Positions 5,776 through 46,673 of a stretch of 64,000 nt of DNA are shown here, piece by piece; position 1 is the stretch's first letter; every line of letters begins with the position of its first letter. Source of the stretch: an uncultured Gammaproteobacteria bacterium (GTDB lineage Bacteria; Patescibacteriota; Microgenomatia; Daviesbacterales; UBA10151); assembly GCA_964393545.1 (NCBI GenBank), contig CAYMUB010000058.1, forward strand, positions 12,297-76,296, read 5' to 3'. Under the pieces are notes generated by a model that did not search any database, had not been told where the DNA came from, and saw nothing but the letters and a program-made list of their open reading frames with translations. The translations under genes and the position numbers were made by a program.

Positions 5776-6782
5776 TTTGAAAGAAGGGCTATCCAAAGAC
5801 CAAGTATGGCAAATAGCCCTTGCGCTAACCAGAATCTGGCAACTATTTTTGGCTCTTCCCAACCAATATATTTAAAGTACATATGTAATGGTAAAACAGG
5901 CAGAATTTTTCTTTTGAATATTTTTTTAGAAAGAATTTGAAGCAATGAGGAAACAATAATGATAACAAACATTCCTCCAATAGCAGCTAGAGCTAGTACT
6001 TTACCAGTAAGCAATCCAACTACAGCCAGAGTGGCGCCAAAGCCAAAAGCTCCTGCATCACCCAAAAAAATCCTGGCCGGCCAGACGTTGAAATAAAGAT
6101 ATGCAAAAAGTAGTCCAATCCAAATTCCAATAAATGAGGCCAGCGTTAAATCTAAAGCTTGAGAAGTAAGAGCCAAAAAAGCAAATAAGCAGATTAATAA
6201 CAGGCCTGAGGCCAGCCCATCCAGTCCATCTGAAATATTATAGGCATTAGCAAAAGAGATTATAATAAATGCAGCCAAAGGTATAAACCAAAAATTAATA
6301 ACAAAATTCCCCAAGCCCGCTATGTAAAAATTATTCAAACCCGCCCAAAAATATAACATGGCAGCGATGGTAAAGGCCAAAACAAGCTGAATAATAAACA
6401 TTTTTCTCCTGCCCAAACCTAAAAACTTCCCTTTTCTTCTGGTTAGAATAAATTTAATATCATCAGATAATCCCAAGAGACCAAAAGATACCAGAGTAAA
6501 AAGCAGTATCTTCAGACTAATTTTATCAATAGAAGAGTTTAAAAAAGCATATCCAACACTTAAAACTACCAGAATTAAGATTAATAATATTCCACCTCCT
6601 GAGGGAGTATCTTCATCTTTTTTCATTAATTGATCATGAATTGGAGTTTCACTTATTTTTAGAGCAGCTTTTTGTTTCTTTTCAAATCTGTGTTTTAAAT
6701 AAAAAAGTAGATCAATAAAAGGCACCATGAATATACTGGTGGTGATAAATGAGAGTAAAACTAAACCTAAAAGTTGCGTCAT
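5772..6782 (-). CDS. mraY: Phospho-N-acetylmuramoyl-pentapeptide transferase MraY
   Basis: It carries the MraY/WecA signature NAYNISDGLDGLASG and is a multi-TM protein. Confidence 0.9.
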   Translation of the reverse strand: MTQLLGLVLLSFITTSIFMVPFIDLLFYLKHRFEKKQKAALKISETPIHDQLMKKDEDTPSGGGILLILILVVLSVGYAFLNSSIDKISLKILLFTLVSFGLLGLSDDIKFILTRRKGKFLGLGRRKMFIIQLVLAFTIAAMLYFWAGLNNFYIAGLGNFVINFWFIPLAAFIIISFANAYNISDGLDGLASGLLLICLFAFLALTSQALDLTLASFIGIWIGLLFAYLYFNVWPARIFLGDAGAFGFGATLAVVGLLTGKVLALAAIGGMFVIIIVSSLLQILSKKIFKRKILPVLPLHMYFKYIGWEEPKIVARFWLAQGLFAILGLWIALLSK

Positions 6783-7915
6783 TGTTTTTTAGCTATTCTT
6801 TTAACTACTTCATCAAGTCTAACTGCTTTTGAACCCTTTATCAAACATACATCACCTTTTCCTAATATTTTTAGCAACTTACCAACCAACTGAGAATTTT
6901 GCAGATTAGTCTGTAATTTTTCATCCCAAAATCCTAAACTGAGAAGTTCATCAGCTATTATTTTTGTATCACCCTGGCCTAAAATTACTAGATCAATTTT
7001 TTCCTTATATATTATTTGAGCAATCTGCCTATGTAAGGCATCAGAATATTTACCAAGTTCTTTTATTTCCCCCAAAACTAGGATTCTACGTCTGGCTGGT
7101 ACTTTCAAAAGTGTATCTATAGCAGCTTCAATATCAGAAGGTGAAGAATCATATGAATCATCTAAGATAATCGAACCATTTGGACCCAGGATTGCTTGCA
7201 ACCTGTGTTCTTGGGGTAAAACAGACTCTAAAGCAATCTTTATTTTTGTCAGAGGAATATCACAAGAAACTCCCAAAGCAGCAGCAGCCAAAGCTGGATA
7301 AACCTGGTGTTCTCCCAGGAGTTGATAGTTTACCTTGACTCTTTCAACTCCTAAATTCAATTCAAATGTAGTTCTAAAATCTTCAATTTTAATATTATCT
7401 GCCCAAACAGTACATTTTTGGGGATCAGTACCGAAATAAATAATAGTTCCTTTACACTTATCTGCTAATTTTTTGGAGTTTGGATCATCCCAATTCAAAA
7501 TAGCCACCCCGTTTGCAGGAAGTTGTTCTATTAATTTACCCTTCTCATCCAGTATTTCATTTAAATCACTTAAAGATTCAGAATGTGGATATGAAATCTT
7601 GGTAACAATAACTGTATTGGGTTTAACTTGTGATAAATAAGAATCCATTTCTCCTTTATATTCAATCCCCATCTCTAAAATAACTTTCTTAACTTGGGGA
7701 GAAAGTTTTAACAAAGTTTGGGGAATATTGGACATAGAACTTGAGTTAGAAGCTGTTGTAATGGTTTTAAATCTTTGTGACAGAACAGCTAAAGAAGCTC
7801 TTACACAAGTAGTCTTACCTATTGATCCAGTTACACCAATAAATAAACTTTTAGAATATAACTTGGTATATTGCCTGGCCAGATATGTTCTTAGAATGTT
7901 TAGAGGCTGATCCAC
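6779..7915 (-). CDS. murF: UDP-MurNAc-tripeptide--D-Ala-D-Ala ligase MurF (compact)
   Basis: It has the Mur ligase P-loop GVTGSIGKTT and the MurF-type C-terminal motif LDDSYDSSP (compare DDSYNANP). It lies immediately upstream of mraY. Confidence 0.75.
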   Translation of the reverse strand: MDQPLNILRTYLARQYTKLYSKSLFIGVTGSIGKTTCVRASLAVLSQRFKTITTASNSSSMSNIPQTLLKLSPQVKKVILEMGIEYKGEMDSYLSQVKPNTVIVTKISYPHSESLSDLNEILDEKGKLIEQLPANGVAILNWDDPNSKKLADKCKGTIIYFGTDPQKCTVWADNIKIEDFRTTFELNLGVERVKVNYQLLGEHQVYPALAAAALGVSCDIPLTKIKIALESVLPQEHRLQAILGPNGSIILDDSYDSSPSDIEAAIDTLLKVPARRRILVLGEIKELGKYSDALHRQIAQIIYKEKIDLVILGQGDTKIIADELLSLGFWDEKLQTNLQNSQLVGKLLKILGKGDVCLIKGSKAVRLDEVVKRIAKKQ

Positions 7916-7918
7916 AGT

Positions 7919-9184
7919 CTACTTCTCAATTCTCTCAATTTGAGCCCCTAGAAGCTTAAGTTTACCCACTACGTCTTCATATCCTCTCTCAATCAATTCT
8001 GCCTGATTAATAGTACTCTTACCTTTAGCAACTAAGGCCGCTAAGACTAAGGCCATTCCTGCTCTAATATCTGGTGTTGCAAGTTTTGTCCCTCTTAATT
8101 TCTTTGGGCCCAAGACAAGTACTCTATGTGGATCAGCTAGAATAATCTGAGCTCCCATAGAAATTAATTTATCTATAAAAAACATTCTTGATTCATACAT
8201 CCAATCATGACACATCATCATACCTTTAGATTGAGTAGCTAAAACTATTGCCACGCTCATCACATCTGTGGGAAATCCTGGCCAAATATTTGTTACTAAT
8301 CTTTGAGGTGATTTTAAGCTTGATGCGGAAAAGGTAAGATCATTCCCTACATTCCCTACTTCTATTCCAAATCTTTTTAAAGGGACTAAAACAGGATCCA
8401 GATCAGTATTATCCAATCCTGTCACTTTTACTTTCCCCCCAGTGACAGCAGCTGCTATAGCATAAGTTCCTACCTCTAGATAATCTATTCCCAGCCTAAA
8501 TCTCGTTCCATATAATTTTTCAACACCCTCAATAACCAGGGTATTTGTTCCAATCCCTTCAATTTTGGCACCCATTTGGGTTAACATTTTACATAAATCT
8601 ACTACATGAGGTTCTATTGGACAATTTTTCAAAATTACCCTTCTTTCACCCAAAACTGAGGCAATAATTAAATTTTCAGCAGCTGTGACTGAAGCCTCTT
8701 GTAAGAAAATGGTGCAATCTTTGTTATGTTTAGTATCTTCAGCAAACTGCAAAGTTAATTTTAAATTATCTCTTTTATAAGATGCTCCTAAAGCTTTAAA
8801 CCCTTCTATATGAGTCTCAATACTTCTTTGTCCAATAATATCCCCACCTGGATGATAAAAATTAACTTTTCCTTTATTGGCTAAAACTGCGCTTACTAAA
8901 AGAATTGATCCTCTAAGTTTAGTCATTAAATCCCGGGGTAGGCTAAATTGTTTAATTTCTTGTGCTTTAATTGTTAAAGTATTTTTATCAAAAACTGCAT
9001 TAACACCCAGTTTCTTTAGAATTTGTACTAAAACTGCGGTATCTGCAAGTTTTGAAACATTTTCTAAAACCACTTCCTCGCAAGTAAGTAATGCGGCTGC
9101 TACACAAGGGAAGACTGAGTTTTTATTCCCTGAAATCTTGATTTCACCTATTAATTTTTTCCCACCTTCGATAATATATTTCAT
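7919..9184 (-). CDS. murA: UDP-GlcNAc 1-carboxyvinyltransferase MurA. It carries Asp at the position of the catalytic/fosfomycin-target Cys115.
   Basis: The N-terminus MKYIIEGGKKLIGEIKISGNKNSVFPCVAAALL is typical of MurA. The active-site loop reads HPGGDIIGQRS where E. coli has PGGCTIGARP. Confidence 0.9.
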   Translation of the reverse strand: MKYIIEGGKKLIGEIKISGNKNSVFPCVAAALLTCEEVVLENVSKLADTAVLVQILKKLGVNAVFDKNTLTIKAQEIKQFSLPRDLMTKLRGSILLVSAVLANKGKVNFYHPGGDIIGQRSIETHIEGFKALGASYKRDNLKLTLQFAEDTKHNKDCTIFLQEASVTAAENLIIASVLGERRVILKNCPIEPHVVDLCKMLTQMGAKIEGIGTNTLVIEGVEKLYGTRFRLGIDYLEVGTYAIAAAVTGGKVKVTGLDNTDLDPVLVPLKRFGIEVGNVGNDLTFSASSLKSPQRLVTNIWPGFPTDVMSVAIVLATQSKGMMMCHDWMYESRMFFIDKLISMGAQIILADPHRVLVLGPKKLRGTKLATPDIRAGMALVLAALVAKGKSTINQAELIERGYEDVVGKLKLLGAQIERIEK

Positions 9185-9192
9185 TTCAAACT

Positions 9193-9777
9193 CTATATTT
9201 TTGACTTAATTCTAAAAACACCTGATAAAATTATATGTTTCTTTAAACTTAGTTCTTTTGGTTCAATATCCCAAATATTAGACTTTAGATCTAATACTTT
9301 AATACTTTTTGTAAGTCTTTGCAAAAAATTATTTATTAAAAGGTTGCCTCCAATGCTTCCTGGAAAATTTGACAATTCATCAGATTGTAATCCTTGAGTG
9401 TCTAAAAATTCCGCAAATTTTTTCATACTCATACCTGATTCTACCTCAATTAAAGCTTCTTCAATTCCTATCCCAAGTTTGGAAACCCGTCCTTTAACAG
9501 AAACTGTCTGAATATTTTTTGTTCTATTTTTTATCACTAGTCCCTCAAATCCTAAATCAGACATCAGAATTTTACTGCCTGTACCAAATAAAAAAAATGG
9601 TAGATTTAATTCTCTACACATGCTTATTGTCTTAATCAATTCTCTTGTCGTAAAGGCAATAAAAAATAATTTTGCAGAGCCACCAACCTCTAAGGCAGTA
9701 TAGTTTTTGATTGGTTCGTTAAACTTAAATTTGTCAGATCCTATTGAATCAACAATTAACTTAAATTTGCTATCCAT
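9193..9777 (-). CDS. murB: MurB-like protein (UDP-N-acetylenolpyruvoylglucosamine reductase). It is only 194 aa and essentially comprises the FAD-binding domain.
   Basis: The FAD-binding (PCMH) motifs are present: KNYTALEVGGSAKLF, FLFGTGSKIL and FPGSIGGNLLINNF. The C-terminal substrate domain found in canonical MurB (~300 aa) is largely missing. Confidence 0.55.
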   Translation of the reverse strand: MDSKFKLIVDSIGSDKFKFNEPIKNYTALEVGGSAKLFFIAFTTRELIKTISMCRELNLPFFLFGTGSKILMSDLGFEGLVIKNRTKNIQTVSVKGRVSKLGIGIEEALIEVESGMSMKKFAEFLDTQGLQSDELSNFPGSIGGNLLINNFLQRLTKSIKVLDLKSNIWDIEPKELSLKKHIILSGVFRIKSKI

Positions 9778-10969
9778 TCAAGGCCCTTTCAACTGCTTTA
9801 AAGTCTGACCAGGGAATTTCGCGGCCATGATAGTTCATAGATTCCTCATGTCCTTTGCCGAATATCCCCACAATGTCTCCCTTTTTTGCCAAAGATATGG
9901 CAAACTCAATGGCTCTTTGTCTGTTAGACTGTTTAAATAAACTTTGATTATCTTTTGCGCCAGCTTCATAAGCTCCTTTGGCAATTTCTGCCATTATCTT
10001 GTGGCTATCTTCAAATCTGGGGTCTTCATCTGTTAACACCGTGATGTCAGCAAGTTTGGCAGAAATTCCTCCCATAATTGGTCTTTTTCCTAAATCTCTT
10101 TGGGAAGCTGCACCAAAAACAGAAATTAATTTTCCAGATCTATTTTGGGAACGAAGAGTAGTTAGAACCTTTTCTAAAGCATTAGGAGTATGGGCAAAAT
10201 CCACAAATACTCTTATCCCTTTTTTATTTTTTACTTCCTGCATTCTACCGGTTAAACTCTCAAAGTTTTCCAAAGAAACTTGGGCAATTTTCCTGTTTAC
10301 ATTCAAAACAAAAGCTGTAGCCAGAGCAACCAAAGCATTTTCAATATTAAAGTCTCCTGGAATTTTTAAGTTTAGTTTAAGATCTTTTTGGTTAAAATTG
10401 CCTTTATTCAGTCCAAAAGTTATCACCTTACCTAAAGTTTCCCCAACCAGTTTAATATTTTGATTAACTATGGCGGATTTGGCGTTTTTAATAAACTTAA
10501 GTTTGGTATTTTTATAGCTATCAAAAGTTTTATGATAATCTAAATGTTCGCGGGTAATATTGGTTATTACCCCCACATCAAATTTTATTCCCCAAAATCT
10601 AAATTGATCTATGGCATGTGATGTAACTTCCAAAACTAAATACTCATCTCCATTCTGCTTTGCAGAATTTGCTAATTTTTGTATCATAAAGGGATCAGGA
10701 CTGGTTACATGAAATCCCGTTTGATAAGTTTTTCCTGCAATAATAGCATTAATTGTTGATACCATAGAAACTTTTTTTCCTGCTGCTTTTAAAATCTGGT
10801 AAATCATATTTGTGGTCGTTGTTTTCCCATCTGTTCCAGTAACACCTATAACAGTCATTCCCTTTGTGGGAAAATCATAAGCGGTACTAGCCAAAAATGC
10901 CTTTGGCCTGTGATAAAAATTATTTACTACTCTCTGAGATAATATTGATTTTAAAACCTTTTTAAGCAT
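9770..10969 (-). CDS. murE: UDP-MurNAc-L-Ala-D-Glu--diamino acid ligase MurE (N-terminally compact)
   Basis: It has the P-loop GVTGTDGKTTTT, the MurE motif VDFAHTPNALEKVL, and a C-terminal GKGHE. Confidence 0.75.
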   Translation of the reverse strand: MLKKVLKSILSQRVVNNFYHRPKAFLASTAYDFPTKGMTVIGVTGTDGKTTTTNMIYQILKAAGKKVSMVSTINAIIAGKTYQTGFHVTSPDPFMIQKLANSAKQNGDEYLVLEVTSHAIDQFRFWGIKFDVGVITNITREHLDYHKTFDSYKNTKLKFIKNAKSAIVNQNIKLVGETLGKVITFGLNKGNFNQKDLKLNLKIPGDFNIENALVALATAFVLNVNRKIAQVSLENFESLTGRMQEVKNKKGIRVFVDFAHTPNALEKVLTTLRSQNRSGKLISVFGAASQRDLGKRPIMGGISAKLADITVLTDEDPRFEDSHKIMAEIAKGAYEAGAKDNQSLFKQSNRQRAIEFAISLAKKGDIVGIFGKGHEESMNYHGREIPWSDFKAVERALNG

Positions 10970-11017
10970 TGGGGATATTATATCAAGTTACTCCCCCTAT
11001 TGGGAACGATCCTCGGA

Positions 11018-11046
11018 TTGACAAACAATATAGTATGTAATACGAT
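11018..11046 (+). promoter_or_regulatory. Sigma70-like promoter for brnT (TTGACA-17-TACGAT)
   Basis: TTGACA lies at 11018-11023, followed by a 17-nt spacer and TACGAT at 11041-11046. This sits about 15 nt upstream of the GTG start of brnT. Confidence 0.4.
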
Positions 11047-11060
11047 ACTTATTATCTACG

Positions 11061-11384
11061 GTGAATATAGTGATTAAGAAATTAGTTTGGGATGAATGGA
11101 ATGTAGCACATATCGCACACCATGAGGTTTTACCGGAGGAAGTGGAAGAGGTATGTCGGGCAACATTTGTTGCCTATGAAAGCTACGATGAGAGATTTGA
11201 GATTATTGGATCAACCAAACAGGGAAAAATTCTATTGATTGTCCTCGATCCTGAGAGAGCCGAAGGAGAGTACTACGTAGTAACCGCTCATACGGCAAAT
11301 AAAAAAGATCGGGCGCTATATAAATTGAGAATAATAAATAAGAAAGAAAAAGGAGGTGGACAAAATGACGAAGCAGAAAAGTAA
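11061..11384 (+). CDS. brnT: BrnT-family type II toxin (DUF497 ribonuclease toxin)
   Basis: WDEWNVAHIAHHEV...VTAHTANKKDR matches the BrnT/DUF497 signature. It uses a GTG start and overlaps the next gene by 29 nt, as TA operons often do. Confidence 0.7.
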   Translation: MNIVIKKLVWDEWNVAHIAHHEVLPEEVEEVCRATFVAYESYDERFEIIGSTKQGKILLIVLDPERAEGEYYVVTAHTANKKDRALYKLRIINKKEKGGGQNDEAEK

Positions 11385-11643
11385 AATACCGATATTTAAA
11401 AATCGTCAGGAATTGGCAGCGTTTTGGGATACACACGATGTTGCAGATTTTAAAGATGAGCTAAAACCAGTTGATATCCACTTTGATCTGGGAAAACCCA
11501 AGGAAGAAACGGTGATGTTCCGATTAGACAGAGGAGTGAAGCAGTACCTTGCTCAGCTTGCAAGAAAGAAAGGGTTAAGTACGTCAAGTTTGCTTAGGAT
11601 GTGGATTATGGAAAAATTTCATCAACTGCAGCAAGCGCACTAA
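11356..11643 (+). CDS. brnA: BrnA-family antitoxin (RHH-like C-terminus)
   Basis: This small protein follows brnT. Its C-terminus GLSTSSLLRMWIMEKF resembles the BrnA/CopG-like DNA-binding tail. The toxin-first order is characteristic of brnTA. Confidence 0.6.
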   Translation: MDKMTKQKSKIPIFKNRQELAAFWDTHDVADFKDELKPVDIHFDLGKPKEETVMFRLDRGVKQYLAQLARKKGLSTSSLLRMWIMEKFHQLQQAH

Positions 11644-11802
11644 ATCAGTTTCAAAAAGGAAGGTTTTAATAAAAGGTAAGAAGCAGCTTTTGGATCAAAT
11701 AAATTCAATACTTTAACTAAAAAGAAATACTTAAGGAGAAAGATAAAACTATGATTAATCTAGGCTGTTGTAACAATAAAATCCAGAACCGTCCCCATTT
11801 TA

Positions 11803-13500
11803 TTACTCACTGGGAGCTATTTTGTAATAGGTAAATAGTTGTTTGGCAATCTCAAAAAAAGTTGGTGCTGCTGTCTCTGCTCCATAAATTGAAGAAGAGG
11901 GTTGATCGTATCTAACCAGCATGACAAATTTTGGATTATCTGCCGGGGCAAATCCGACAAAAGAAGCAATAGTTTTATTTGGATCATAATGACCGGCGAC
12001 TGGAATTTGAGCTGTTCCTGTTTTACCTGCTATTTTAAATCCTTTTGGTTTAAAAAACTTAGCTTCCCCCTCATCAATTGCTGCCACCATCATCTCTTTG
12101 ATCATTTCAGCTGTAGACTCTTTAATAACTTGTTTTACTATTTTAGGTTTTATTTCAAAAGTATTTTTATTATCTTTAATCAATCTGACAATATGCGGCT
12201 CCATTAAACTACCATTATTGGCAATAGCTGATACAGCAGTTATCATTTGAATCGGGGTAACAGCAATTCCCTGCCCAAATGAAGCTGTTGCCAAATCAAT
12301 TTCTCTCCATTCATTTTTGGGCCTAATGTCTGGAACAGATTCATCTTGTAAATCTATATTGGTTGGTTTGTTAAAACCAAAGTTTTCCAGGTATGAATAA
12401 AACTTATCCAAACCTAATTTTTTCCCAACAAATACCATCCCGGTATTATCTGAATGAATTATGACATCCTTTAGAGTTGTGTTTTCATAAAATTTATCAT
12501 TCCAGGTTCTAATTAAAAATCCCCCCAAAGAAATAGGTCCTGAGCAAATATCGCATTTTGTATCTGGCTTAACTAAATCTTCATTTAATGCAGCTGCCAT
12601 CACTAAAACCTTAAAGGTTGATCCTGGTTCATATTGGTCTGCCACTATGGGATTTTTGTAATATTCCTTGGGGAAATTAGAATAATTCTTAGGATCATAG
12701 TTAGGAAACACAGCTAATCCCAGGATTGCCCCTGTTTTAGGATCCATGACAATTACTGATGCTGCTTTGGCTCCATATTTTTCTATTCCTTTCTTTAAAC
12801 TTTGTTCAACAATAAACTGAACTGACCTATCAATGTTTAAACTCAAATCCTTACCATTTTTAGCGTTAGATGATAAAAAATTCCCAATCATGATAGGTAA
12901 ACCAGTTGCATCCTGTTCATGCCTTAAAGAACCAGATATACCTCTTAACTCTCCGTCATAAAACCCTTCTACTCCAAAATATCCTTTACTTTCTCCTTTA
13001 GAATCAAAGCCCACAAATCCTAATAAATTAGCAGAAGATGATCCTTCCGGATAAAACCTGCTGTTGGTTTGGTCAAATCCAATTCCAGATAAATTTAAAT
13101 TTTCAATTTCTTTCTTCTTATCAAGAGTAATTTCTTTTTTTATAGACACCCAAAATAAATCCGAAGAGATTCTATTTATTATTTCTTTGGCTAGATCATC
13201 AACATCTCCACCTTCTTCTACTAGTGCTTTAGCAAGTAAATATCCTGTAGTTACTCTTTGTTCTTTAGTAATTAATTTAGGTTGGACAAAAAGAGTGAAC
13301 GAAGGGTTATTTGATGCTAAAATTGATCCATCAGTGAAAAAAATATTTCCTCTTAAAGCCCCCACTTTTACATTTGTAAAATGCTGTCCTTCTGCTTGTG
13401 CTGTCAAATACTCAGCCTTTACTGCTTGCCAGTAAAATAGCCTTATTATAATGATCAGGAAAAATATCAGAAAAAAAGATTTTATACAAAATATCCGCAT
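11803..13500 (-). CDS. ftsI: Class B penicillin-binding protein / septal transpeptidase FtsI
   Basis: It has an N-terminal TM anchor, the PBP dimerisation domain, and the transpeptidase motifs STFK, SDN and KTGT. Confidence 0.9.
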   Translation of the reverse strand: MRIFCIKSFFLIFFLIIIIRLFYWQAVKAEYLTAQAEGQHFTNVKVGALRGNIFFTDGSILASNNPSFTLFVQPKLITKEQRVTTGYLLAKALVEEGGDVDDLAKEIINRISSDLFWVSIKKEITLDKKKEIENLNLSGIGFDQTNSRFYPEGSSSANLLGFVGFDSKGESKGYFGVEGFYDGELRGISGSLRHEQDATGLPIMIGNFLSSNAKNGKDLSLNIDRSVQFIVEQSLKKGIEKYGAKAASVIVMDPKTGAILGLAVFPNYDPKNYSNFPKEYYKNPIVADQYEPGSTFKVLVMAAALNEDLVKPDTKCDICSGPISLGGFLIRTWNDKFYENTTLKDVIIHSDNTGMVFVGKKLGLDKFYSYLENFGFNKPTNIDLQDESVPDIRPKNEWREIDLATASFGQGIAVTPIQMITAVSAIANNGSLMEPHIVRLIKDNKNTFEIKPKIVKQVIKESTAEMIKEMMVAAIDEGEAKFFKPKGFKIAGKTGTAQIPVAGHYDPNKTIASFVGFAPADNPKFVMLVRYDQPSSSIYGAETAAPTFFEIAKQLFTYYKIAPSE

Positions 13501-13502
13501 CT

Positions 13503-13796
13503 TTAGCGGATATATTGTATACCCAAAGATGGAGTAAATCCAAGCTCTGCGCTTTTTGAGGCAATGGTTTTTAAAGAAGAATTCAAGGCTACTTCATTTT
13601 CTAAAATCTGATTTTCCATCTTTAGATTTTTTTCCAAAACTGACAATTTTTCATATTTTTCTCCATAAGCAATCACTGTATTACTAACCCAAATTTCAAT
13701 TAATGTTAGGGTAAACAAACTAATAATAGTCAGGATAATAAACTTTTTAGGAAATTTTCTTTTTTGTTTCTCTGATTCAAATTTTTTAATAATCAT
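13503..13796 (-). CDS. ftsL: FtsL/DivIC-like septum formation protein
   Basis: This 97-aa bitopic protein has a TM helix followed by a coiled-coil (LEKNLKMENQILENEV). It sits between rsmH and ftsI. Confidence 0.5.
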   Translation of the reverse strand: MIIKKFESEKQKRKFPKKFIILTIISLFTLTLIEIWVSNTVIAYGEKYEKLSVLEKNLKMENQILENEVALNSSLKTIASKSAELGFTPSLGIQYIR

Positions 13797-14668
13797 GTTT
13801 TTCTAAATATTCTTAATTTTGCTGACCTGGACCTGATGTTTTTTTCAACTTCTTCGTCTTTGGGTGTAATTGGTTTTTCAGTTAAAACTTTACCCCAACT
13901 TTTCTCTTCCCACTCTCTAAAAGATAATTTAACGATCCTATCTTCAAGTGAGTGAAAACTAATGACACTAATACAACCATTTTTTGCTGTTAAATCTATT
14001 ACTTGCTTTAATCCTTCCCTTAAAGCATCCAATTCATCATTCACTGCTATTCTCAGTGCCTGAAATACCCGGGTAGCCGGATGTATCCCTTCCTTATTAC
14101 CTCCCACCACTCTCTCTACAACCTTGGCCAGTTGTGTTGTAGTTGAAAAGGTTTCTACTTCACGGGCGCGCACCAAAGCGCCAGCCAAATCCCAAGAATA
14201 TTTTTCTTCACCAAAGTTGTTAAATAATTCATATAACTCCTTTCTTGATAAGATCTTTATTAAATCCAAAGCCCTGACATTTAAGCTTGGATCCATTCTC
14301 ATATCCAAAGGCCCATTCTTTGAAAAAGAAAAACCTCTTTCCCCAGTCTCAAGTTGCAGACTGGAAACCCCCAGATCAAATACCACACCTTTAAACTCCT
14401 GATCCAAAAGTAAATTTTTAAGATCTCTAAAATTACCTTTAATTAATCTAAACCTATTCTTATCTATCTCCGCTTTTTCAAATCTTTTTTCCACTCTCTC
14501 TAAAGCCTGGGGATCAACATCTATTCCAACAACATTTCCTCCTAATCTTAAAATTTCTAAACTATGTCCCCCATCACCCAAAGTACAATCCAAATACCAT
14601 TTCTCTTTTTCAACCTTTAAACTATCTATTACTTCTTTGAGAAGAACGGACCTATGATATCCTTCCAT
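13793..14668 (-). CDS. rsmH: 16S rRNA (cytosine1402-N4)-methyltransferase RsmH/MraW
   Basis: MEGYHRSVLLKEV...DCTLGDGGHS is the canonical RsmH N-terminus. It is the second gene of the dcw cluster. Confidence 0.9.
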   Translation of the reverse strand: MEGYHRSVLLKEVIDSLKVEKEKWYLDCTLGDGGHSLEILRLGGNVVGIDVDPQALERVEKRFEKAEIDKNRFRLIKGNFRDLKNLLLDQEFKGVVFDLGVSSLQLETGERGFSFSKNGPLDMRMDPSLNVRALDLIKILSRKELYELFNNFGEEKYSWDLAGALVRAREVETFSTTTQLAKVVERVVGGNKEGIHPATRVFQALRIAVNDELDALREGLKQVIDLTAKNGCISVISFHSLEDRIVKLSFREWEEKSWGKVLTEKPITPKDEEVEKNIRSRSAKLRIFRKT

Positions 14669-15068
14669 TGCGGTACTCTCCTTCTATTATTTTGATATGT
14701 TTTTCCCAAAGTTTTAATTCCCAGATTTCAAAATGATCTCCTGCGCCAATAATTACTACTTCCTTTTTAACTTGAGCAAAATCCAACAGGTTAGATGGTA
14801 TGATAATCCTACCTTGACCATCCAACTCCACAGATTCACTTCCCGAAAATAAATACCTTCTCAAAAATCTGGCCCGTTCTTCTGTTGCAGAAATCTCCAG
14901 TTGCTTTTGTGCCTCTTTTTCAAATTCTTTTACATCAAATCCCCAAATGCAACTTTCAAATCCCCTGCTTAAAATAATTTCTAAACTTGTCAGTTCTTGC
15001 CTAAATTTACGCGGCAAGACAATTCTTCCCTTTCCCGAGAATTTTGTCTGATATTTACCCAAAAACAT
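14652..15068 (-). CDS. mraZ: Transcriptional regulator MraZ
   Basis: MFLGKYQTKFSGKGRIVLPRKFR is the MraZ/SpoVT-AbrB-type N-terminus. The tandem DUF199 organisation is present. It is the first gene of the cluster. Confidence 0.85.
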   Translation of the reverse strand: MFLGKYQTKFSGKGRIVLPRKFRQELTSLEIILSRGFESCIWGFDVKEFEKEAQKQLEISATEERARFLRRYLFSGSESVELDGQGRIIIPSNLLDFAQVKKEVVIIGAGDHFEIWELKLWEKHIKIIEGEYRNGRIS

Positions 15069-15154: not shown

Positions 15155-16714
15155 TTGTCAATAGGTAAGATGAATCTGATCTCAAGAAATGTTATTATTC
15201 ACCCTGTGAGCAAGATAAATAATATTGAACGTTTTGGTTACCACCAGGATGGATCATTTGAATCACTTGGGACAGCAGCACTTAAACTTCGTTTATCTGC
15301 TGATAAACCTATAACAAAAGCAGTTCCTCCTGAAATTGAACTTCAAATCTCCAGAGGTATACTCACACCTACTGATACTGAATATATAAGAGCCATTTTG
15401 CAAAGGACTCCTGAAGTTGCCAGCAGTGCAGGCTATCTTTTGCAGGGAATTGAGACCCCAGCAGCTAGAAGAAAAATTGCAGAACGTAATTCTCAAGCTC
15501 ATATTGACCTGGGTCAGCTACTAAGTCCCTTTTCTGAAAAAGAGAAGGCAATTCTTACTCAAAATTTAGGTGAGTTTCAGCTTACTGACGGCTGTACTGT
15601 GGGCTGTGCCTGGTGTGGTGTAAATGCTTTGAGGAGAACAACAACCGCCTTTAGTTTACAGTCAGTTGTCAAATTTGCCCATGAGTATGGAAACTTATCA
15701 AAAAATGCTGGTCTATATTCAGCTTCTGACCCTTTTGATTGGGTTGAAGGAGATTATACTTATTTAGATATTCATGCAGTTTGGGGAATCTATAGCAAGT
15801 CAGAACCATTTGTTAGCACCGCTGTCCCATTGGGAACAGAATTTTCAATATTAAGATTTGTAGAAGCACAGTATGAAGCGTTAAGAAAATCTTCCATTTT
15901 AGATGGAAGCAATTTCAGATTTTCCCGGACTGATAGAAATGCAGAAAGAGTTGATCAGATGCTTAATATACTTCGGTTAAGAGGACTTAATGAAGATTTT
16001 CTCAATACGATTAGGATCAGCGACGTAAGTGATAAGAAAGTTGCTCATATAGGCTATTTTATTAATCATCGAGATAGAGATGATATTTACGATAATCCCG
16101 GAATTACATGTAAAGACTGCATTGTCATTACCCCATCAGCAATTCGAGGAAAGACAATGGAAGCATACACAAAAACAAGCCCAAAAGGTATGCGGGAATG
16201 GACAATAGCTCCTGGAGAAATGCAGGTTCCAGTCTATAGAATAAGACAAGACTATTATGGTTCTGACTTTGCAGAAAATCAGGATGTAGGAACAGTACCT
16301 TTTTCCATTTTGCCCGATGTTAAAATTCTTCATGTAAAAGATGGTGAGGTTGTAGATGAAGAAGTAGTACGATCAATAGGTAGGACTGCTTTAGCTTTTT
16401 GTTTCACTGCTTGGAATATGCATGATCTTGGTGCAAAGCTTACTTCAGATCAGGTAGATTATTTCCTAAATAATTTCCCCGGAGGATTAAGATCTATTGA
16501 GAAACATCTTATTGATTTTGAAAGAAGATATCTTACGATGAAAGATGAATCAACTCCTCTACTTGATGATCCAAATCAAATAGCTATAAAAATTGCAAGG
16601 GAATATGAAAGCATGACTCGTGGAGAACTAAGAAACGCAAAAAAAGCAGTAGAAACACTTAAAAAAAGAAGAAGAACTTTCTTAGGTTTACAAACCCCTA
16701 TTCCTTATTATTGA
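15155..16714 (+). CDS. Hypothetical protein with a CxxxCxxC motif and a downstream GGE-like motif. It is a candidate divergent radical-SAM-type enzyme with an N-terminal extension of about 140 aa.
   Basis: DGCTVGCAWCG lies at residues 145-155 (nt 15593-15616). SASDPF follows about 40 residues later, a GGEP-like position. The ORF opens with TTG at 15155, and the more likely start is the ATG at 15170 (MNLISRN...). Its GC content is higher than that of neighbouring genes. Confidence 0.5.
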   Translation: MSIGKMNLISRNVIIHPVSKINNIERFGYHQDGSFESLGTAALKLRLSADKPITKAVPPEIELQISRGILTPTDTEYIRAILQRTPEVASSAGYLLQGIETPAARRKIAERNSQAHIDLGQLLSPFSEKEKAILTQNLGEFQLTDGCTVGCAWCGVNALRRTTTAFSLQSVVKFAHEYGNLSKNAGLYSASDPFDWVEGDYTYLDIHAVWGIYSKSEPFVSTAVPLGTEFSILRFVEAQYEALRKSSILDGSNFRFSRTDRNAERVDQMLNILRLRGLNEDFLNTIRISDVSDKKVAHIGYFINHRDRDDIYDNPGITCKDCIVITPSAIRGKTMEAYTKTSPKGMREWTIAPGEMQVPVYRIRQDYYGSDFAENQDVGTVPFSILPDVKILHVKDGEVVDEEVVRSIGRTALAFCFTAWNMHDLGAKLTSDQVDYFLNNFPGGLRSIEKHLIDFERRYLTMKDESTPLLDDPNQIAIKIAREYESMTRGELRNAKKAVETLKKRRRTFLGLQTPIPYY

Positions 16715-18911: not shown

Positions 18912-19561
18912 GATAATTTCTTTAAAAACTGTCTGCTTTTTAAAGCTCCTTCAATTACTCTTTCTAAATAATATCTCAATACGCTCTCAAGTTCCATAGC
19001 TTCTTTCTCATTTATTTTTAACTGCTCAATAGAATCCCAAGACATACCTTCCAAATCCCTTAATATATTCTTCACATTTAAGCTTACACTTTCCAGGTGT
19101 GAATCTAAACTTTCTTGGAAATTGGCAAAACCCATCAAAGATAAAATCCTTACCTCAAAAGCTCTGATAAAAATCTGTCTTGGTTTTTGTTCTAATTTTT
19201 TTAATACTTGAGTCAGATTAAAATACAGATTAGAACTTTCTTGGTTTTCTGCAGTTAATTTATCAACTAATTCTAAAATGTGGAAAGACACAGTTGATAA
19301 AGTTAAATCTTCTTTAAGCTTTGAGTAGGTATCTAAACTTACTGCCTCAGTTAAAATAGGCATGCCTTTGGTTTGATGTAAAAAAATAGATACTCTATTA
19401 AGCAGTTCAACATTCCCTGCTCTTCTTGAAGTAATTCTCCTAACTCCTTTTGCCAAAATAGAAATCTTCCCTCTATCTTTTGAAAATACAGTTAATATTC
19501 TATCTGCTTCCCCAAAATTCCTTCTCTTGAGTACTATCCCTTCTGTCTTAAATCCTCTCAT
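18908..19561 (-). CDS. recO: DNA repair protein RecO
   Basis: EGIVLKRRNFGEADRILTVFSKDRGKI matches the RecO N-terminal OB fold. The adjacency to glyQS is conserved. Confidence 0.75.
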   Translation of the reverse strand: MRGFKTEGIVLKRRNFGEADRILTVFSKDRGKISILAKGVRRITSRRAGNVELLNRVSIFLHQTKGMPILTEAVSLDTYSKLKEDLTLSTVSFHILELVDKLTAENQESSNLYFNLTQVLKKLEQKPRQIFIRAFEVRILSLMGFANFQESLDSHLESVSLNVKNILRDLEGMSWDSIEQLKINEKEAMELESVLRYYLERVIEGALKSRQFLKKLS

Positions 19562-19970
19562 GGAAGGGATTTATAACTTTAAGTTCAGATATTTTTTTAA
19601 AATCTCTGATATTATCTGTTGCGATTACATTTATGTCATTACTCAACGTTGTTGCCACTAAGTAGGCATCGAATATTTCATCAGCTGAAAGTTTATACTT
19701 TTTAATCAATTGTAAAGCGATTTGATGTGTACGATAATCTGGAGAAATTATTCTGCAACTTTTTAATATACTTTCCACCACCTCTATGGCTTTATTTATC
19801 TTCATAGGCGAGGGAAATTTTGGATGTGTAAGCACTCTGAGAGTTTCAAAAATGTTTTGATGGGCAACTTCCAAATTCCCGGTATTCTTTTGTAAAAAGT
19901 TTTGGGCCTGTTTATGTTTTGGAGAGGAAATATTGATTGAGTAAATTAAGATATTTGAATCAATCAGCAT
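19548..19970 (-). CDS. vapC: PIN-domain ribonuclease toxin VapC
   Basis: MLIDSNILIY is followed by the acidic residues Glu (FETLRV), DAYLVAT and DNIRDF that make up the PIN quartet. It is preceded by a small RHH gene. Confidence 0.7.
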   Translation of the reverse strand: MLIDSNILIYSINISSPKHKQAQNFLQKNTGNLEVAHQNIFETLRVLTHPKFPSPMKINKAIEVVESILKSCRIISPDYRTHQIALQLIKKYKLSADEIFDAYLVATTLSNDINVIATDNIRDFKKISELKVINPFHERI

Positions 19971-19974
19971 TTTT

Positions 19975-20217
19975 TTAAGGCTTAGGATAGTAATCCGCCC
20001 GCTTAAGGTTATCTAACGGTTCTCCTAAATCATGAGTCTTGAAAACTATTTTCTTGGCTTCTTTTTTAGCCTCGTTTTCTAGATAATATTCCAAAGCGCA
20101 GTTAAAAACCTGCTGCAGGGTAACATCATCTTCCAAAGCTTTATGTTCTGCGCCCTTTTTCAAGTTTTCCTGAATCCGGAGAGTAGTTCTTACTAACATA
20201 TAGATTAATTTTGTCAT
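19975..20217 (-). CDS. vapB: VapB-like RHH antitoxin
   Basis: This 80-aa protein has TTLRIQENLKKGAEHKALEDDVTLQQVFNCALEYYLE, which is RHH-like. It lies 4 nt upstream of vapC. Confidence 0.55.
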   Translation of the reverse strand: MTKLIYMLVRTTLRIQENLKKGAEHKALEDDVTLQQVFNCALEYYLENEAKKEAKKIVFKTHDLGEPLDNLKRADYYPKP

Positions 20218-45018: not shown

Positions 45019-45182
45019 AAATAAAAAAAAGTTCCCAGAACCATTATAAAAAAAGAGTATATTAAAAGTCTTAGGGCAACTCCTGCGTGATTGGAAAAAA
45101 GTAATACCGCACTAGAACAAAAAAGGAGAAGGCTTGATATAAAAAGGTATTTACTCATCTTTCATATGATATAATTTTTTCA

Positions 45183-46673
45183 ATGCTGAGAAAAGCCCTA
45201 CCTCTCTTGTTCATATTTACAGTAGTCTTACTGTTATACTACCCAGTGTTAACAACTTATTACACCCAAGATCATTTTCTTCATTTTAAGGTGGGTCTCA
45301 CTGATGGAAGTTTAAAACAATTCTTAAACCTCTTTGAATTCCATACATTTGAAGAAAGGGGTCTAGCTTATTATAGACCAATATTCAGGGACGTCTTATT
45401 TCATATTCTCTATAACTCATTTGGTCTAAATCACATTCCTTACAGAATTTTATATTTTGTAATTCACTTTATAAACATATCTTTGGTCTATATTTTTATC
45501 CAAAAACTATTTCAAAAAAAACAAATTTCTTTTTTTGTATCATTTTTCTTTGGGATTTCATCTGCCAATATTGGAATACTTTACTGGGGCATTGAAATTC
45601 TAGGCGCAACTATGTTTATAATTTCAACTCTAATTCTTTTTATTAAATTTTTAGAAACCCACAAAAATAAATTCCTGATATTCTCATTATTAACATTTTT
45701 ATTGGCACTTGGATCTCATGAATTCGGGGCAATTATCCCTATTCTTTTGGTTGGTTTAATACTTATTTATCTACCATCTAAATCTATCCCTATAAATATT
45801 TTTCGTCTTTTACCATTTTTCTTGATAGTAATCCCTTATGTTTTTTTGGACTTCACCCAAACAGGTTATTCATCAAAGGATCTACAATACAGCCCTGTTC
45901 TTAATTTAAAAAGCACACTAAACACCCTCAGCTGGTATACTGGTTGGGCTTTAGGCTTACCCGAAATGCTAGTCGATTTTGTACTTCCCGGTTTAAAACT
46001 AAACCCAAATCTAATAAGGTATTGGGGAAATTATTTTCTTATAATTTTTCCAACTTTCGTTATTTCTCTAGCCTTTTTGTGGATACTAATCATTTATCTA
46101 ATAGTTACTGTGAGAAATGTCTTATATACTAAAAAGTTCTTATTCTTAATATTTTTGTTCCCGTTAAACCTGTTACCAGTTTTATTCTTTCCATTTCATA
46201 AATTTACTTATTATCTAAGCGCCTCTTTACCGGCTTTTTGGGGAACCATAGGATATATACTTTTTAATGCCTATTGGCATCTTAAAAAGAAGTCCCCTCG
46301 TCTAGCATTAATGGTAATAGCAACATTTATTTCAAGTATTTTATTGCTGAATACGACTTCAATTTTGTTAGGGCATTCTACCTATTGGGCTGCACAAAGA
46401 GGAAAAATAGCAGAAAAAATAATTAAGCAAGTTACATCTAGGTATCCAACACTTCCTAAGGGCTCTGTTATCTACATTACCAATGATCCCACTTATTCAT
46501 ATGTTGCCAAAGATTGGGGTGGATCTTCTAAGCAGGCTAGTATTATTTTAAGCGGGTCTGACGCATTACAACTTATATATAAAGACCCCACCCTTAGGGT
46601 TTATTATGAAGATTTGGAAAAATTAACTACTCAAGATAAGAATGTCTATCCTTTAGTTGCCAAGATATATTAA
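45183..46673 (+). CDS. Polytopic membrane protein, putative GT-C-type glycosyltransferase
   Basis: This 496-aa protein has an N-terminal loop (DHFLHFKVGLTDG...EERGLAYYRPI) followed by more than 10 TM helices. It is transcribed divergently from the 894-aa gene. Confidence 0.45.
   Translation: MLRKALPLLFIFTVVLLLYYPVLTTYYTQDHFLHFKVGLTDGSLKQFLNLFEFHTFEERGLAYYRPIFRDVLFHILYNSFGLNHIPYRILYFVIHFINISLVYIFIQKLFQKKQISFFVSFFFGISSANIGILYWGIEILGATMFIISTLILFIKFLETHKNKFLIFSLLTFLLALGSHEFGAIIPILLVGLILIYLPSKSIPINIFRLLPFFLIVIPYVFLDFTQTGYSSKDLQYSPVLNLKSTLNTLSWYTGWALGLPEMLVDFVLPGLKLNPNLIRYWGNYFLIIFPTFVISLAFLWILIIYLIVTVRNVLYTKKFLFLIFLFPLNLLPVLFFPFHKFTYYLSASLPAFWGTIGYILFNAYWHLKKKSPRLALMVIATFISSILLLNTTSILLGHSTYWAAQRGKIAEKIIKQVTSRYPTLPKGSVIYITNDPTYSYVAKDWGGSSKQASIILSGSDALQLIYKDPTLRVYYEDLEKLTTQDKNVYPLVAKIY

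Follow-up and report, generated by a model that had tools for sequence, protein, structure and literature searches.

One lineage of Daviesbacteria-like Microgenomates very likely carries a complete and selectively maintained type II toxin-antitoxin module of the BrnT/BrnA type within its cluster of genes for cell division and wall synthesis (dcw), inserted at a permissive site between ftsI and murE. The module lies in a 64,000-nt stretch of contig CAYMUB010000058.1 (the window; coordinates are counted from its first letter), whose minus strand holds a complete dcw cluster, assigned with Pfam and NCBIfam, in the order mraZ-rsmH-ftsL-ftsI / murE-murB-murA-murF-mraY-ftsW-murG-ftsQ-ftsA-ftsZ (Table 1). 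The interval 10970-11802 (833 bp) lies precisely between the start codon of murE (10969) and the stop codon of ftsI (11803), both on the minus strand, and it holds two overlapping plus-strand open reading frames (ORFs), 11061-11384 and 11356/11365-11643. A first-pass annotation of the window had proposed that a plus-strand module of about 830 bp breaks the cluster between ftsI and murE, and that it comprises its own TTGACA-17-TACGAT promoter, a GTG-start BrnT gene and an overlapping gene for a BrnA antitoxin; all of these elements are borne out by the evidence presented below.

The FtsI protein of the window is 72-90% identical to proteins of metagenome-assembled genomes labelled Candidatus Daviesbacteria, Microgenomates or Patescibacteria, and the window is, judged by its sequence, a fragment of a Daviesbacteria-like Microgenomates genome (candidate phyla radiation, CPR/Patescibacteria). 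Genomes of such uncultured organisms are metagenome-assembled, and a chimeric join could in principle mimic an insertion. A Logan contig of ERR3478687 is 100% identical to the window over 4938 bp, running through murB-murE-brnTA-ftsI and crossing both junctions, and a contig of ERR4904393, also 100% identical, extends from ftsL and ftsI into the cassette up to 11045, covering the ftsI-side junction only. Since three independent assemblies are identical over the junctions that they cover, the insertion is not an assembly chimera. A diverged contig (L011, see below) with the same murE-brnT junction likewise speaks against an artefact, an explanation that is essentially refuted.

The brnT and brnA genes and their promoter

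The first ORF encodes a BrnT-family toxin, which on sequence comparison and structural modelling is a divergent member of its family; the assignment is made through transitive homology, fold and gene architecture, whereas a direct match to a profile hidden Markov model (HMM) fails and one catalytic residue differs. A database search returned 45 homologs of the window protein (E 9e-53 to 6e-6), several of them with a precomputed PF04365 assignment or named DUF497, and when the window protein and 33 homologs were scanned singly, 25 of the 34 aligned sequences matched PF04365 (BrnT_toxin; best E 1.9e-9). The best match of the family profile in the PDB is Brucella BrnT (3U97), aligned over profile positions 6-85 of 95. 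Consistent with this, an AlphaFold2 model of the window protein computed on the family alignment (predicted local distance difference test score, pLDDT, 87.9; predicted template modelling score, pTM, 0.79) has strands at residues 36-40, 46-51, 57-64 and 70-78 plus helices, and a Foldseek search of the PDB placed 3U97 at rank 1 (probability 1.00; target-normalised template modelling (TM) score 0.77; root-mean-square deviation 2.5 A) and chain A of the Salmonella toxin-antitoxin complex 7VD7 at rank 2, with no further significant match. According to PMC5086665 (citing Heaton 2012), RNase activity of Brucella BrnT needs D6, E7, K9, R41 and E78. These residues align with D11, E12, N14, R45 and D83 of the window protein, i.e., three are identical, one is conservatively exchanged (E to D) and the remaining one differs. 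Both cassette ORFs are intact, and no residue that is invariant in the family is missing. In comparisons with three different relatives, the ratio of nonsynonymous to synonymous divergence (dN/dS) is 0.09-0.12 for the cassette genes (brnT 0.09-0.12; brnA 0.09), indicating that both genes are under purifying selection.

The longest frame of the second ORF spans 11356-11643, and its likely start is the ATG at 11365, which is located 8 nt past a GGAGG and yields a protein of 92 aa with a 20-nt overlap between the two genes. Shine-Dalgarno motifs are rare upstream of the other genes in the window, to which this GGAGG is a strong exception; given the overlap with brnT and this ribosome binding motif of its own, brnA is probably translationally coupled to brnT. 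Its product scores 48 bits against PF12441, for which the cut-off is 28 (E 2.2e-12; residues 7-83 of 92, profile positions 2-78 of 79), and is by this HMM match a BrnA-family antitoxin. Residues 45-85 show weak matches to ribbon-helix-helix (RHH) families (RelB, NikA-like and DUF6290), and no solved homolog of BrnA was detectable by sequence. The pairing of the two genes is not peculiar to the window: a 92-aa PF12441 gene follows brnT in four cassettes from other contexts (L001-L004), and brnA lies directly downstream of the BrnT relative in 66 of 80 metagenomic loci. Being adjacent, co-oriented and overlapping, served by a promoter of their own and found together again in other contexts, brnT and brnA have the sequence hallmarks of, and are taken to be, a type II toxin-antitoxin operon.

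Promoter-like hexamer pairs are not more frequent than chance in this AT-rich DNA (7 found, 6.3 expected), and the brnTA promoter is regarded as real because it is conserved and not on the hexamer pair alone. At the DNA level, the homology that the window shares with cassettes located in unrelated contexts (L001, L002/3, L004, L020 and L026) starts at 11013-11018, where the -35 box lies, and ends at 11614-11669. Within this homology, TTGACAAAC and ATGTA.TAC are invariant across seven aligned cassette loci, and 41 of 77 family loci have TTGAC[AT] upstream. The -10 box reads TACAAT in most close relatives, which is the family consensus, and TACGAT in the window. A TGTAnTACA palindrome over the -10 box is conserved in close relatives, the window site being TGTAATACG and the consensus TGTAATACA, and distant family members have a longer palindrome, TGTAACGCATTGCGTTACA, between -35 and -10 in the layout TTGAC(A/T)-tTGTAACGCATTGCGTTACAAT. 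With 5 matches where 8.2 are expected, the operator-like motif shows no enrichment in the rest of the window, and extra operator copies near dcw promoters were rejected on this count; in the region, the motif occurs only at the promoter of the cassette itself. The promoter together with the palindrome presumably represents the layout that an autorepressed promoter of a type II toxin-antitoxin system should have; PMC5086665 reports that the BrnTA complex of Brucella binds its own promoter. The GTG start codon of brnT lies about 14 nt after the -10 box and is not preceded by a Shine-Dalgarno sequence, suggesting that the mRNA is probably leaderless or nearly so.

In the mechanism proposed for the module, a sigma-70-type promoter (TTGACA-17-TACGAT) would drive the near-leaderless brnT, whose product would be a RelE-like ribonuclease toxin of the DUF497 family, and BrnA would be its RHH antitoxin. 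By analogy with Brucella BrnTA, BrnA may neutralise BrnT in a complex, and this complex may repress the promoter via the palindrome over the -10 box. The similarity to Brucella abortus BrnT/BrnA (3U97; Heaton et al. 2012, as summarised in PMC5086665) includes a toxin gene in first and an RHH antitoxin gene in second position, a matching fold (Foldseek probability 1.00, TM 0.77) with D6, E7 and R41 conserved and E78 replaced by Asp, an antitoxin that falls in PF12441 and in this resembles Brucella BrnA, and a promoter palindrome consistent with autorepression. In contrast to Brucella BrnT, the window toxin, at a structure-based identity of about 19%, is below Pfam detection and has Asn in place of K9; unlike Brucella BrnTA, the window pair, known here from sequence and model, overlaps by 20 nt, has a near-leaderless toxin start and resides in a CPR host. 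Makarova et al. (2009; PMC2701414) predicted that two-gene operons joining COG2929/DUF497 with COG5304/COG3514 are toxin-antitoxin systems of a mobile kind. The window pair, itself one of these, is like them in combining a small DUF497 protein with an RHH protein, in its patchy distribution and in its signs of horizontal mobility, and differs from them in that all members found of its subfamily are from CPR-like and groundwater metagenome contigs, a tblastn search of phage and plasmid collections giving no match to this BrnT subfamily. The brnTA pair is, in summary of these comparisons, a standard BrnTA-type module of a divergent CPR subfamily in an unusual location, the dcw cluster. Its toxin is missed by current Pfam and NCBIfam models, and annotation pipelines would call this BrnT 'hypothetical'.

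The probable murE promoter and the ftsI-murE junction

The position of the cassette inside a dcw cluster looks striking, but can be accounted for by an internal promoter that murE already had and that renders the junction permissive. A TATAAT box is located 0-13 nt upstream of the called murE start in 12 of 12 lineages (L005-L010, L012, L015/16, L097, L098, L011 and the window), whether or not the spacer is occupied by an insert. In most of them the box is preceded by TG, which is absent in L012, L009 and L098, and the extended -10 element reads TGATATAAT, or TGCTATAAT in L005. The called murE ATG of L012 abuts the -10 box, and a GTG 9 nt further fits the common pattern. The combination TGNTATAAT-N7-ATG has two copies in the 64 kb where 0.09 are expected, one at murE (10967-10985, minus strand) and one at a divergent gene at 45183 (45167-45185, plus strand), and a promoter scan matched the murE element as TTCCCA-18-TATAAT with TG. 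Additionally, most window genes are without a recognisable Shine-Dalgarno sequence, and the two patterns together suggest that this CPR genome has promoters and translation starts of the leaderless type, including promoters internal to the dcw cluster. Taken as a sequence signature, the conserved box very probably marks a leaderless-type promoter that murE possesses in the whole group.

Because all relatives have the murE promoter, the ftsI/murE junction was probably a transcription-unit boundary before the insertion took place, and a dcw cluster forming a single contiguous unit from mraZ to ftsZ, with no boundary between ftsI and murE, is probably not what these genomes contain. The search for a dcw-internal promoter upstream of murE, which the first-pass annotation had suggested, hence undermines that annotation's own proposal that the cassette splits the operon in two: the order of events is likely the reverse, the split having preceded the cassette. 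As the insertion site already carries the murE promoter in all relatives, the cassette probably does little harm there.

Insertions appear to be tolerated at this junction because of the pre-existing murE promoter, and a second example is provided by L005 (Microgenomates bacterium Gr01-1014_7), in which the same junction (7734-8606) is occupied by a PaaX_M/Cas2-like gene of 231 aa on the dcw strand; behind it come a duplicate of the last 30 codons of ftsI and then the promoter and murE. The two inserts share the junction and the retention of the murE promoter downstream of the insert; that of L005 lies on the dcw strand with a duplicated ftsI 3' end, whereas the window cassette lies on the opposite strand with no significant duplication. 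An ftsI 3' remnant beside murE in the window, comparable to that of L005, was sought and rejected, as the local alignment consists of GAGTAA only and 447 of 2000 shuffles score as well. The duplicated ftsI end of L005 is 85% similar to the ftsI end of the window, the proper ftsI end of L005 being 74% similar to it, and this duplicate may be a trace of recombination, or of site-specific integration, at the 3' end of ftsI. That accessory genes insert into conserved clusters at operon boundaries or at permissive sites between genes is a general phenomenon. The occurrence of at least two different inserts at one junction, together with the younger synonymous divergence of the cassette (see below), would point to gene flow that reaches even the most conserved clusters in streamlined CPR genomes. 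A search of the literature that was available for searching yielded no relevant account of toxin-antitoxin modules in dcw clusters.

On the other side of the cassette, brnA and ftsI converge over an AT-rich spacer. No intrinsic terminator was predicted in it, and a terminator or structured RNA was rejected on folding energies no better than those of shuffled sequences (z +1.1 and +1.4 for the two strands); Rfam likewise gave no family for the spacer, only sub-threshold noise. By the geometry of the locus, antisense read-through into the ftsI 3' end is possible. Toxin-antitoxin promoters of this type are normally tightly autorepressed. A 27-codon ORF (MINLGCCNNKIQNRPHFITHWELFCNR, 11751-11834, plus strand) begins in this spacer, 12 nt downstream of an AAGGAG, and extends in antisense orientation into the 3' end of ftsI; neither a homolog nor a sign of conservation was found for it, and it is therefore probably spurious.

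Distribution, history and rival explanations

The cassette is absent from 11 relatives, in nine of which the ftsI-murE gap measures 13-39 bp. The closest relative, L012/L013 (FtsI identity 90%), has a spacing of 13 bp; L015/L016 and L097 (both 80%) have 23 bp, L098 (79%) has 39 bp, and L007-L010 (72-75%) have 15-28 bp. In L006 (75%) the spacing is about 95 bp, and L005 (75%) has the different insert of about 1 kb described above. Conversely, the closest homologs of the cassette on long contigs (BrnT 70-81% aa identity) reside in unrelated neighbourhoods, next to an acetyltransferase gene and prfB, a histidine kinase gene and a pilin-like gene, or an AAA ATPase gene, and dcw genes were found in the flanks of 0 of 80 metagenomic loci of BrnT relatives. 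L011 (SRR22387914) is a 940-bp contig in which murE is divergently adjacent to the same cassette. Relative to the window, its MurE is 81% identical (nt and aa), its BrnT 85% identical in aa, and the first 125 nt of its brnA 98% identical; at the murE-side junction, 35 of 35 nt next to murE (10970-11004) are identical, with a 12-nt indel further in. Synonymous divergence (dS) between the window and L011 is 0.05 at the brnA 5' end, 0.41 in brnT and 0.85 in the adjacent murE (40-140 codons), and brnA dS relative to the L001 cassette, in an unrelated context, is 0.40. The lower dS of the cassette compared to murE, together with its closeness to the L001 cassette, suggests that the cassette postdates the divergence of its hosts and was exchanged by recombination.

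Together, these data make it very likely that one lineage of Daviesbacteria-like Microgenomates (CPR) received a module of about 650 bp (~11013-11669), along with about 130 bp of extra DNA, between the ftsI stop codon and the extended -10 promoter that murE already had. The first-pass annotation had inferred horizontal acquisition from base composition, and had held that relatives with the same cassette at the same position would show it to be ancestral. Acquisition is supported by the 11 relatives without the cassette and by the close homologs in unrelated contexts, but the cassette is not specific to one strain, as the murE-side junction is the same in L011, so that the finding which was to speak for ancestry was made in part. 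As for composition, a GC content of 45-50% had been estimated by eye, which is too high by about 6-10 points: the whole interval has 37.1% and the brnT and brnA ORFs together 39.6% (brnT 38.9%; brnA 40.1-40.3% depending on the start used), compared with 33.8% for the window, 34.8% for murE, 34.2% for ftsI and 28.3% for the 3' spacer (11644-11802). A contrast with the flanks thus exists, though not of the size claimed. When compared with stretches of equal size, the two ORFs have a GC z of 2.0, 2.7% of the stretches being equally GC-rich, and GC at third codon positions is 0.333 in brnT (z 2.5) and 0.409 in brnA (z 4.8, the maximum of the window) against a mean of 0.252 (standard deviation 0.032) for 56 window genes, an elevation in line with a mobile cassette.

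Several observations weigh against a complete, maintained module that entered the junction from elsewhere. There is no recombinase gene, target-site duplication or terminal inverted repeat at the insert, and, L011 aside, the roughly 100 loci fetched contain no homolog of 11670-11802 or of 10986-11017. Neither Pfam, even with the scan extended to E 10, nor NCBIfam gives a match for the window BrnT, and the match of the family profile to 3U97 has an E-value of just 0.055. K9 of the Brucella toxin is Asn in the window BrnT, as in nearly the whole subfamily, and the A-to-G change in the -10 box and operator of the window could weaken the promoter or operator. A transposon, insertion sequence or integron cassette was rejected as the vehicle, the interval containing no other ORF and the flanking repeats amounting to nothing more than brief AT-rich matches of the chance kind; the borders likewise showed no structured element of RNA or DNA, and 10986-11017 has no homology to cassettes in other contexts.

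A different history, in which the cassette was ancestral to the window, L011 and L012 and was then precisely deleted in L012, is possible but doubtful when set against later gain or spread by homologous recombination through the dcw flanks. Such a loss would fit the shared murE-side junction of the window and L011, as well as a neighbour-joining tree of the MurE N-terminus (141 aa), in which the window pairs with cassette-free L012 (70% bootstrap) and cassette-bearing L011 falls outside (40% for the trio); gain versus loss was not decided on this tree, its bootstraps of 40-70% being too weak. The 13-bp spacer of L012, however, shows no scar, and the cassette dS of 0.05-0.41 against 0.85 for murE, although calculated on few sites, favours later exchange. 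The lack of a direct Pfam match, the replacement of K9 by Asn and the G where the family has A in the -10/operator could also be explained by decay of brnTA into a non-functional remnant, with an inactive toxin or an orphaned antitoxin-regulator. This is improbable in view of the intact ORFs with all family-invariant residues, a dN/dS of about 0.1 against three independent relatives and a confident model with the BrnT fold; moreover, the K-to-N exchange is common to nearly the whole subfamily and so is no private lesion of the window protein.

Equally improbable is a co-option of the cassette into division or cell-wall control, be it by modulation of murE through BrnA/BrnTA binding, by antisense damping of ftsI or by toxin-mediated growth arrest upon cell-wall perturbation. 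The brnT -35 box (11018) and the putative murE -35 box (11001-11006) are divergent and only 11 bp apart, no terminator separates brnA from the convergent ftsI, and the arrangement is kept in two diverged lineages, all of which would be compatible with such a role. Nevertheless, the murE promoter is unchanged in relatives without the cassette, the closest relative among them; the operator-like motif is confined in the region to the cassette promoter; and the cassette family occurs in many unrelated contexts, none of the loci surveyed being dcw-linked. A bolder version, in which the junction is an insertion or recombination hotspot set by the murE promoter and brnTA is wired to cell-wall synthesis via the back-to-back promoters and an antisense ftsI transcript, is slightly less probable still; were it true, the state of the toxin-antitoxin module would modulate how strongly the genes for peptidoglycan and division are expressed. 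The reading that fits the cassette best is that of a stress module, selfish or mobile, at a permissive site, and not that of an element of division control.

Features of the locus and neighbouring observations

Table 1. Features of the dcw locus and the brnTA cassette, with positions in the window.
Feature	Coordinates	Strand	Remarks
brnT	11061..11384	+	divergent DUF497/BrnT-family toxin, 107 aa, GTG start; homologs, fold, gene architecture
brnA	11365..11643	+	CopG/RHH-type antitoxin, 92 aa; Pfam PF12441 CopG_antitoxin
GGAGG Shine-Dalgarno for brnA	11352..11356	+	within brnT 3' end; read from sequence
brnTA promoter (predicted)	11018..11046	+	-35 TTGACA 11018-11023, 17-nt spacer, -10 TACGAT 11041-11046; promoter scan, homology
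Operator-like palindrome TGTAATAC(G)	11036..11044	+	overlaps -10; presumed BrnA/BrnTA site; conservation
brnA-ftsI spacer	11644..11802		159 bp, AT-rich (28% GC), brnA stop to ftsI stop; first ~26 bp belong to cassette (L001 homology ends 11669)
Junction DNA	10986..11017		between murE promoter and cassette; possible murE -35 TTCCCA at 11001-11006 (-); L011 identity
murE extended -10 TGATATAAT	10977..10985	-	7 nt upstream of murE ATG; predicted internal dcw promoter; TATAAT kept in 12 lineages
murE	9770..10969	-	399 aa; flanks insertion, downstream in dcw orientation; NCBIfam TIGR01085 E 5e-110, Pfam Mur_ligase_M + Mur_ligase_C
ftsI	11803..13500	-	565 aa; flanking dcw gene, convergent with brnA; Pfam Transpeptidase E 3e-77 + PBP_dimer
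ftsL	13503-13796	-	dcw cluster
rsmH	13793-14668	-	dcw cluster
mraZ	14652-15068	-	dcw cluster
murB-like	9193-9777	-	dcw cluster
murA	7919-9184	-	dcw cluster
murF	6779-7915	-	dcw cluster
mraY, ftsW, murG, ftsQ, ftsA, ftsZ		-	dcw cluster; downstream of murF in dcw direction

Within the cluster itself, the murB-like gene encodes 194 aa with a FAD_binding_4 domain alone, and as this small size is kept in all relatives, these genomes appear to have a truncated MurB. MraZ is mosaic in its identities, being 46% identical to that of L012 (FtsI 90%) and 78% identical to that of L005 (FtsI 75%), which suggests that the head of the dcw cluster has undergone recombination. A 519-aa ORF on the opposite strand (15155-16714, plus strand) separates mraZ from the conserved gene that comes next. 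It has a CxxxCxxC motif and a weak Radical_SAM match (E 0.014) with local GC of up to 44%, is absent from relatives L005-L013, the corresponding gap being about 100 bp in L012, and is a second lineage-specific insertion bordering the dcw cluster. Further away, a second toxin-antitoxin-like pair occupies 19548-20200 (minus strand), where recO is overlapped by the gene of a PIN-domain protein (19548-19970), just upstream of which lies a small RHH-like ORF; in the same place, L012 has a PIN gene together with an antitoxin gene showing weak MazE/PrlF matches.

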